From NCBI GenBank assembly GCA_021813945.1, contig JAKAJD010000002.1, positions 173,936-237,935 of the forward strand: 64,000 bases of DNA. Direction: 5' to 3'. The position numbers and the translations under genes are program-made. The DNA is from a bacterium (GTDB lineage Bacteria; Patescibacteriota; Microgenomatia; Curtissbacterales; GWA2-41-24). How positions within the stretch are numbered: position 1 is the stretch's first letter; each line of letters opens with the position of its first letter. Below the pieces are notes generated by a model. That model saw nothing but the letters and a program-made list of their open reading frames with translations. It did not search any database and was not told the DNA's origin. Shown piece by piece: positions 52,916 through 53,487 of the stretch.

Positions 52916-52997
52916 ATCGCAAGATTATACATAAATTAATAAACAAAAACCAAACCAATAAGCTTTCTAAGACTTCGTGCTATAATCTAACTACAAC

Positions 52998-53147
52998 CGA
53001 ATAAATCAAGAGCGATGGCGAGGGAATTGGCCCTATGACCCATCCGGCAACCGAGCTAAAAGCCACGGTGCCAAATCCAACCATTTTGGAAAGATTAGGT
53101 CTATACGACAAAGGCGAACCTCTTTTTCTAAAAAGAGGTTTTTTTAC
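52998..53147 (+). promoter_or_regulatory. SAM-I (S-box) riboswitch with an intrinsic terminator expression platform
   Basis: Aptamer …ATCAAGAGCGATGGCGAGGGAATTGGCCCTATGACCCATCCGGCAACC…GCCACGGTGCCAAATCCAACC… matches the SAM-I consensus (AUCaAGAGnGGnGGAGGGAcuGGCCCnAUGAnnCCCnGCAACC … GGUGCnAAnUCC). An extended -10 TGCTATAAT lies at 52980-52988. The terminator is AACCTCTTTTT-cta-AAAAAGAGGTT+T7 at 53118-53147. Confidence 0.8.
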
Positions 53148-53184
53148 GGCGAAACCTCTTTCCAAAGCAAAAAGGAGGTGAAAA

Positions 53185-53487
53185 ATGCCGGAGCACAAAT
53201 ATCATTATCTTTCAAAAGAACATGTGTGGACCACAAAAAACCTTGAGATTATAGAAGGGGAAGTGCCCGAAGGTTTAACCTTGGTCGGAACAGGAGTCGG
53301 AATCAGCTTTCAACATTGTGTTTTCGAAGGAATCCTGCACACGCCGGATTTTTTGAAAAGGATTGTAGCCTTTCGGGTCGAAGGACAGGATGAGCTAACA
53401 CAGGTTTTGGAAGATGAACTCAGTCTTATTGGCAAAACCGCAAACTACGTCTCAATCAGCTTTTACGAAAGGGGAGAAGGATCATAA
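53185..53487 (+). CDS. Hypothetical 100-aa protein under SAM-riboswitch control
   Basis: Strong RBS AAAAAGGAGGTG. First gene after the riboswitch. No family recognised. Confidence 0.55.
   Translation: MPEHKYHYLSKEHVWTTKNLEIIEGEVPEGLTLVGTGVGISFQHCVFEGILHTPDFLKRIVAFRVEGQDELTQVLEDELSLIGKTANYVSISFYERGEGS

Follow-up and report, generated by a model that had tools for sequence, protein, structure and literature searches.

The stretch of DNA analysed here, 64,000 nucleotides of contig JAKAJD010000002.1 from an uncultured bacterium and hereafter called the window, contains a riboswitch of the S-adenosylmethionine (SAM) class I, or S-box, type, followed by a gene for a 100-amino-acid (aa) protein of an unannotated family, for which we use the name FAM. 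Aptamer and gene are separated by an expression platform with three copies of a short repeated element, in which a terminator is followed by a hairpin predicted to cover the Shine-Dalgarno (SD) sequence. From promoter to stop codon, the locus is made up of the following features.

52978-52986, + strand: predicted extended -10 promoter, TGCTATAAT, read from the sequence; the homology with the related loci L001, L017, L022 and L024 starts here
53000-53100, + strand: SAM-I (S-box) aptamer with helices P1-P4, match to Rfam model RF00162
53085-53100, + strand: putative switching strand UUUGGAAAGAUUAGGU, comprising the P4 3' arm, J4/1 and the P1 3' strand, recognized by complementarity
53117-53145, + strand: intrinsic terminator, with repeat copy 1 (53117-53127), repeat copy 2 (53130-53140) and a U tract of 7 U (53139-53145), from the inverted repeat and folds
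53147-53190, + strand: SD-sequestering hairpin in predicted folds, in which the copy 3 core ACCUCUUU (53154-53161) pairs with AAGGAGGU (53172-53179)
53185-53487, + strand: gene for the 100-aa FAM protein, supported by the open reading frame (ORF), substitution rates and homologues

A SAM-I leader upstream of a conserved small gene

The original prediction had taken the aptamer for a SAM-I element, and this was borne out by the RF00162 covariance model, which gave 56.4 bits at 53000-53100 on the + strand (E = 2.3e-10) compared to a gathering score of 44.4, with the full model (positions 1-108) covered. It is the sole match to the SAM clan in the 64-kb window. P4 is 3 bp long, and a pseudoknot between the P2 loop and J3/4 is provided by UUGG (53027-53030) and CCAA (53077-53080). 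Judged by its sequence, the element is a bona fide SAM-I riboswitch, which is known biology, and would be expected to bind SAM. The predicted promoter lies 14 nt upstream of P1, and a motif that extends from its -10 box to 52996, TATAATnTAAnTACAA, is present as one exact copy at the same spot in each riboswitch-bearing locus. Near-matches to this motif are enriched in the window (6 versus 1.8 expected), and conservation of the 13-nt spacer that separates P1 from the -10 box extends as far as L022 and L024.

The gene coordinates and SD sequence given in the original prediction were correct: the SD sequence AAGGAGGT at 53172-53179 precedes an ATG at 53185, and the stop codon is located at 53485-53487. 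This strong SD sequence with its 6 nt spacing, and the same start, are kept in three lineages. Public assemblies contain one identical copy of the protein, on a contig of 975,962 bp, and one 87%-identical copy, and comparison of the window ORF with the latter, at locus L001, gave a ratio of nonsynonymous to synonymous divergence (dN/dS) of 0.15. The 100-aa ORF is a real gene under purifying selection.

When 1.84 billion cluster representatives were scanned exhaustively with HMMER, 14 matches were returned, 3 of them spurious. The true relatives are eleven small proteins of 68-120 aa, plus one of 240 aa. The large scan matches P0011, P0012 and P0015 were discarded as relatives, being leucine-rich-repeat or carbohydrate-binding-module repeat proteins. 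The family motif reads L-x-G-x-G-x-G-x4-H-C-x3-G-x2-H-x-P-D-F-x2-R-x3-[YF]-R ... F-[YF]-E, and residues G35, G39, F56, R59, F93 and E95 are invariant or nearly invariant. An AlphaFold model built from the family alignment (pLDDT 88, pTM 0.77) shows a small alpha/beta protein in which three strands are followed by two helices, a strand, a helix and a final strand. Foldseek found no fold match (E >= 1.4 in the PDB and E >= 0.44 in BFVD), a sequence-profile search of the PDB gave noise only, and FAM together with all aligned members had no match in Pfam, NCBIfam, PHROGs or PADLOC. The protein had originally been described as belonging to no recognizable family, and with no significant sequence or fold match in Pfam-A, NCBIfam, PHROGs, PADLOC and the PDB this description holds. 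Several members have other residues in place of the 'HC' motif His and Cys and of His52, which makes a conserved catalytic or metal site unlikely. Catalysis by an N-terminal proline, as in tautomerases, was rejected as well, since the MPEH start is not conserved in distant members.

A SAM-I leader is present upstream of FAM in five distinct members, ranging from 100% to ~35% identity to the window protein.

Window: 100 aa, 100% identity, SAM-I 56.4 bits
L001 (= L016): protein P0002, 87% identity to the window, SAM-I 54.7 bits
L017: protein P0003, 48% identity to the window, SAM-I 50.4 bits
L022: protein P0009, about 43% identity to the window (local), SAM-I 66 bits
L024: protein P0010, about 35% identity to the window, SAM-I 44.6 bits, a score for which the covariance model mis-aligns a P2 insertion, the true P1 5' strand TTATC being ~20 nt upstream of the reported start

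These leaders are homologous across the five loci from the promoter on, and P1-P4 can form in all of them. RNAalifold applied to a MAFFT alignment recovered P2 only, because the alignment was shifted, and the helices were then checked explicitly. Compared to L022 and L024, compensatory changes were found in P1 (A-U versus U-A), P2a (AUGG/CCAU, GUAG/CUAC and GCAG/CUGC), the base of P3 (GGCA/UGCC versus AGCA/UGCU), distal P3 and the pseudoknot, where UUGG:CCAA in the window stands against CUAG:CUAG in L022 and L024, with two positions changed on both sides. Between the window and L017, the region from the -10 box to the P1 3' strand (52978-53100 and 1105-1227, respectively) is 92% identical, whereas the ORF DNA is 60% identical with synonymous sites saturated, and the flanking genes show 60-68% DNA identity. 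The window and L001 share one homology block, with the -10 box at one end and the FAM stop codon exactly at the other, and the flanks differ. At two further contigs the upstream sequence was too short to judge whether a riboswitch is present.

The order at L024 is promoter, SAM-I, terminator, FAM and then, after 9 bp, metK, identified as such by a match to TIGR01034 (E = 6e-71) and by the complete set of three S-AdoMet synthetase domains. The window itself contains no metK. The homologous SAM-I leaders at five members, together with metK in L024, indicate that FAM, or at least one clade of it, belongs to the SAM regulon. The same evidence upholds the SAM link of the originally suggested "SAM- or methionine-related factor", and the more specific suggestions of a transport accessory or a salvage enzyme found no support.

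In searches for further copies, a leader DNA pattern had 0 matches in the JGI metagenomes and likewise in IMG/VR, scanning metagenome and viral contigs with the protein yielded 0 matches for FAM, and a scan of GTDB genomes found the L001-type locus only. Two relatives show additional sequence between the terminator and FAM. At L024, a GC-rich inverted repeat of ~70 nt (1277-1345) lies between the terminator and a shortened FAM gene of 68 aa in an otherwise AT-rich leader, possibly a repeat element whose insertion removed part of the 5' end of the gene. At L022, a 40-codon ORF (524-646), MKRKLVDLKAIGLENWKKMTKEERYKILQPMVDYIKSKNK, is situated between the SAM-I terminator and FAM, ends 1 nt before the FAM ATG, and has no counterpart in the window.

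The terminator and the third repeat copy

The three copies of a short element reported in the original prediction do exist. Copy 1, AACCTCTTTTT, occupies 53117-53127, copy 2, AAAAAGAGGTT, occupies 53130-53140 and is followed by T's up to 53145, and copy 3, GAAACCTCTTT, occupies 53151-53161. The position given for copy 3 was correct, but copies 1 and 2 start at 53117 and 53130 instead of 53118 and 53132. Within these copies, AACCTCTTT forms a direct repeat at 53117 and 53153. The 64-kb window contains 4 copies of it, of which 3 lie in the leader, whereas 1.3 occurrences were expected, and 4 of 100 shuffled sequences reached 4.

Copies 1 and 2 constitute an 11-nt perfect inverted repeat (53117-53127 and 53130-53140), which makes up the terminator stem. 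As predicted from the sequence and from folding, this stem has 11 perfect base pairs, of which 3 are G-C, and starts 16 nt 3' of the aptamer; the hairpin is present in all predicted minimum-free-energy (MFE) and centroid folds. A hairpin with a U tract behind the aptamer was found in all five leaders (window, L001, L017, L022 and L024). A consensus terminator scanner did not list the terminator of the window, probably because only 2 nt are left for the loop when the stem is extended to its maximum. The aptamer strand 53088-53100 is complementary to the 5' arm of the terminator, so that the platform shares the P1 3' strand, and the whole switching strand (53085-53100) is identical in the window, L001 and L017.

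The complementarities of copy 3 provide three candidate partners: the SD sequence, copy 2 and the switching strand of the aptamer. The pairing of copy 3 with the ribosome-binding site (RBS) region had been noticed before and is recovered here as the ACCUCUUU/AAGGAGGU hairpin, which both the MFE and the centroid fold contain for the window, and the centroid fold for L001. Its outer stem, formed by CGGCG (53147-53151) and UGCCG (53186-53190), overlaps the AUG. Two stem differences between the window and L001 retain pairing, one G.U becoming A-U and one A-U becoming G.U. With copy 2, the third copy forms a 10-nt perfect inverted repeat (53132-53141 and 53152-53161). The third complementarity was missed in the original prediction and is a further 10-nt perfect inverted repeat (53085-53094 and 53157-53166), in which copy 3 and its 3' flank, TCTTTCCAAA (53157-53166), perfectly complement TTTGGAAAGA (53085-53094), comprising the P4 3' arm, J4/1 and the start of the P1 3' strand. 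When the segment 53147-53170 was shuffled with dinucleotide frequencies preserved, 2% of the shuffles reached the 10-nt match to the aptamer strand, 0.4% reached the match to copy 2, and at least 8 nt of match to both jointly was seen in 0.2%.

Calculated duplex energies amounted to -13.9 kcal/mol for the terminator, -16.4 kcal/mol for copy 3 with the SD sequence including the outer stem, -13.2 kcal/mol for copy 2 with copy 3, -9.9 kcal/mol for the 10 perfect pairs of the aptamer strand with copy 3, and -7.7 kcal/mol for the antiterminator duplex between the aptamer strand and copy 1 (7 pairs plus 3 pairs). The MFE of the full-length leader, with both terminator and SD hairpin, is -57.1 kcal/mol. 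Forcing the aptamer strand to pair with copy 3 gave a full-length fold of -55.0 kcal/mol, ~2 kcal/mol above the MFE, and in these models it is a more favourable anti-sequestering fold than the pairing of copy 2 with copy 3 put forward in the original prediction. The two roles proposed there for copy 2 thus fared differently: its pairing with copy 1 gives the terminator, and the 10 perfect pairs with copy 3 are real but are not the most favourable alternative. While the RNA is being transcribed, copy 2 with copy 3 is nevertheless predicted to be the most favourable local fold up to the point at which the start-codon region appears. For the SD core GGAGGU, the mean unpaired probability was 0.01-0.03 in unconstrained ensembles, or when P1 and P4 were forced, and went up to 0.17-0.19 when copy 3 was captured, with 0.17 for its capture by the aptamer strand.

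The related leaders suggest how the third copy may have arisen. In L022 and L024, the 5' arm of the terminator carries UCUUUCC, a perfect complement of the aptamer GGAAAGA, and in the window UCUUUCC is retained by copy 3 and not by copy 1. In addition, GGCGAA(A)CCTCTTT is found twice in the window leader, 36 nt apart. The simplest reading of these sequences is that copy 3 would be a local duplication of the terminator 5' arm, recruited to pair with the SD sequence. In L017, the distance from the terminator U tract to the SD sequence is ~10 nt. The 46-nt segment between the U tract and the ATG differs at ~10% of sites between the window and L001, compared to a synonymous divergence (dS) of at least 0.67 in the gene, and with its pairing kept, this indicates that the segment is constrained in the window/L001 lineage.

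Proposed regulation and alternatives

We consider it likely that the locus is a SAM-I OFF riboswitch with its own extended -10 promoter, which would control FAM, a putative factor in SAM homeostasis, by means of both the terminator and the SD hairpin. When SAM is bound, P1 and P4 would hold the switching strand UUUGGAAAGAUUAGGU, leaving copy 1 to pair with copy 2, and the resulting intrinsic terminator would stop transcription before FAM. In transcripts that read through, copy 3 would pair with the SD sequence and the outer stem would cover the AUG. At low SAM, the released aptamer strand would pair with copy 1 as an antiterminator, and either this strand or the freed copy 2 could capture copy 3, so that the RBS would be less occluded. 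FAM would then be made when SAM is scarce, as a member of the SAM regulon in a group of uncultured bacteria. On these folding models, control at both the transcriptional and the translational level is plausible. As for the protein, its most likely role in SAM homeostasis appears to be a non-enzymatic one, as a binding or accessory factor.

Several findings weigh against this model. Full-length folds in which the antiterminator was forced came to about -47 kcal/mol, ~10 kcal/mol above the MFE and that much weaker than the terminator fold, so that the ON state would have to arise kinetically. The SD sequence is mostly paired (at least 80%) in every equilibrium ensemble computed, and P1 of the window consists of 4 contiguous pairs plus two non-canonical positions. 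Copy 3 and the SD hairpin are confined to the window and the 87%-identical L001 and are missing in L017, L022 and L024, thus of the triple-repeat, dual-control platform originally proposed, the terminator of copies 1 and 2 extends to 5/5 leaders and the translational part to 2/5 only. The link with metK is seen at one locus, L024. Of the relatives, which the original prediction had proposed to inspect for a riboswitch, four carry one (L001, L017, L022 and L024), but no SAM riboswitch and no methionine-related neighbours were found at the more distant members L011, L012, L015 and L019. Finally, any role of FAM is a guess, because there are no invariant catalytic residues and no fold match. An aminotransferase gene at L012 was rejected as methionine-related, since its product is HisC/CobD-like.

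The leaders of L017, L022 and L024, which control the same gene family by aptamer and terminator alone, fit a transcription-only switch, in which copy 3 of the window is a leftover duplication of the terminator 5' arm and the SD hairpin is constitutive, either damping translation independently of SAM or having no effect. This explanation agrees with the 36-nt-spaced repetition in the leader, expected for a local duplication, with the persistent pairing of the SD sequence in every constrained ensemble, and with the equilibrium hairpin energies, in which the pairing of copy 3 with the SD sequence, at -14.7 kcal/mol, is favoured over that with copy 2, at -13.3 kcal/mol. However, a leftover would not be expected to diverge so little compared to dS, nor to accumulate stem substitutions that keep pairing, and copy 3 has two separate 10-nt perfect complements, copy 2 and the aptamer strand, a combination that the shuffles rarely reproduced, both of which are free solely in the SAM-free fold. 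We therefore regard a purely transcriptional switch as a serious but rather unlikely alternative to dual control.

Two other explanations concern what the riboswitch serves. In the window, L001 and L017, FAM is followed by a DUF3800 gene, with a gap of 38 bp in L017, and the DUF3800 protein matches the PADLOC candidate PDC-M04A (4e-13); DUF3800 is an effector module of type VII retrons (PMC7736814). With restriction-modification (R-M) genes no more than a few kb away in the window, L001, L019 and L024, FAM might be tied to defence genes, such that low SAM, for example through a phage SAM lyase, de-represses FAM and possibly DUF3800, with FAM acting as an alarm or restriction-alleviation factor. 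We consider this improbable because L024 has FAM and metK in one operon and because DUF3800 is not found beside other members, namely L022 and the distant homologues. Moreover, FAM has no PADLOC or PHROG match, viral contigs yielded no relatives, in the window FAM is separated from DUF3800 by hicBA with its own promoter-like sequence TGGTATAAT, and the literature that was searched contains no paper joining riboswitches to SAM-lyase sensing. In its fullest form, the riboswitch would report SAM collapse to a defence island, and FAM, as an acidic small protein of new fold, would arm DUF3800 or damp restriction; this version is just as improbable, and if true, a metabolite riboswitch would be an immune or self-protection sensor, responding either to SAM lyase or to starvation that leaves new DNA unmethylated. 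Least probable of all, and in our view hardly credible, is that the ORF is incidental and that the product is the terminated riboswitch RNA, acting as a small RNA in trans, or that the riboswitch was orphaned by loss of metK. The leader is indeed far better conserved than the ORF between the window and L017, and metK follows the gene in L024 and is lacking in the window, but an incidental ORF would not show purifying selection, would not be part of a conserved family whose fold is predicted with confidence, and would not keep its strong SD sequence, spacing and start in three lineages, nor would the window/L001 homology end exactly at its stop codon.

The preferred model, a SAM-I OFF switch with terminator and SD hairpin, can be compared with known systems. 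In Bacillus subtilis-type S-box leaders, SAM-I riboswitches control yitJ, metI, metK and other genes, metK being a classic member. The window resembles these leaders in its four-way-junction aptamer with pseudoknot, in the P1 3' strand that is shared with an antiterminator competing with an intrinsic terminator, in the OFF logic proposed here, and in its position in the 5' leader of a SAM-regulon gene, with metK co-regulated with FAM in L024. Unlike them, it regulates an uncharacterized 100-aa family in an uncultured bacterium, P1 and P4 are unusually short, the antiterminator is predicted to be much weaker than the terminator, and an extra SD hairpin is found 3' of the terminator. Regulation at two levels has precedents too. 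The lysC and thiM-type switches of Escherichia coli couple translation with decay or Rho termination. The SAM-II riboswitch of Sinorhizobium meliloti metA also acts at two levels (PMC9373788). As proposed for the window, these use one aptamer for two expression levels, but the known cases rely on Rho, RNase E or distant start codons, whereas the window has tandem hairpins made from a repeated 9-nt element. In Xanthomonas campestris, the riboswitch SAM-I Xcc works chiefly at the level of translation and responds to initiator tRNA as well (PMC7270179). There the ligand state of a SAM-I aptamer sets RBS access, as is proposed for the window, although the conserved mechanism here is the terminator and the translational hairpin an add-on in one lineage. 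Sun et al. (2013; PMC3766115) assigned genes of unknown function under SAM riboswitches to cysteine and methionine metabolism or transport by association, and uncharacterized genes of this kind form an acknowledged category. FAM is likewise tied to metabolism by association, via its co-regulation with metK in L024, but unlike those genes it is absent from Pfam and NCBIfam and has neither a transporter or enzyme signature nor a fold match.

The locus thus represents a known riboswitch class with a new, uncharacterized, rare and structurally unmatched regulon member. The searched literature contained no paper linking SAM riboswitches to candidate-phyla bacteria. A textbook SAM-I element serves here as a label, which marks an unannotated rare family, found only in uncultured bacteria, as one that would respond to SAM scarcity. 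Because the metabolism of these hosts is pared down, a conserved SAM-regulated gene that sometimes goes together with metK is a lead to a new step or regulator in SAM homeostasis. The tandem terminator and SD hairpin derived from one 9-nt repeat would moreover be a compact natural example of a translational layer added by local duplication.

Genomic surroundings

The FAM locus is flanked by the following features.

51591-52915, - strand: EamA/DMT-family transporter (298 aa) and a 132-aa orphan, divergent from the riboswitch promoter
53493-53501: promoter-like sequence TGGTATAAT in front of hicBA
53523-53753 (HicB) and 53756-53977 (HicA): hicBA toxin-antitoxin, between FAM and DUF3800
54592-55215, + strand: DUF3800 gene, downstream of FAM
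55215-55286, - strand: DUF3800-IX RNA (RF02968), about 60 bits, abutting the DUF3800 stop codon on the opposite strand
55446-56249: mad2-like methyltransferase
56760-58337: hsdM of a type I R-M system
58334-59605: hsdS of the same type I R-M system
59574-60647: PADLOC PDC-S19 gene, embedded in the type I R-M system (E = 6.8e-144)
60644-63772: 1042-aa ORF, presumably hsdR

The DMT family includes SAM transporters of Rickettsia and Chlamydia, and the adjacency of the EamA gene and the 132-aa orphan is not kept in L001 or L017. Downstream, the region with HicBA, DUF3800, the mad2-like methyltransferase and R-M genes with PDC-S19 looks like a defence island. In an all-against-all BLAST of FAM neighbours, DUF3800 was the sole recurrent partner, in the window clade only. 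The surroundings of the conserved FAM-DUF3800 order are otherwise rearranged, with hicBA between the two genes in the window and four genes between them in L001. There is no terminator between the FAM gene and hicBA, and hicBA has the appearance of an insertion, since neither L017 nor L001 has it at the corresponding place. A DUF3800-IX RNA likewise occurs at L001 (9011-9082) and L017 (2227-2298), with about 60 bits; these RNAs are known but unexplained (PMC5737381).

R-M genes lie within a few kb of FAM in 4 of 9 contexts, which are the window, L001 (9865-12309), L019 (1-4975) and L024 (1-967). They comprise type IIG with HNH, a Sau3AI/MutH-like enzyme with an N6/N4 methylase, and type I systems. 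This proximity may be a coincidence, or may reflect a link between SAM status and R-M.

Two further ORFs were observed in the window. Directly after secF, a 165-aa ORF at 51089-51586 (+ strand) gave a weak match of the STY4199-like HEPN type (E = 0.0015) that falls below the cut-off. In the 600-bp gap between hicA and DUF3800, a 23-codon Lys/Glu-rich ORF at 54077-54148 (+ strand), MNDDQTKVEDQKKEEAKSEEKAE, is located behind a strong SD sequence, AAAGGGGGA.

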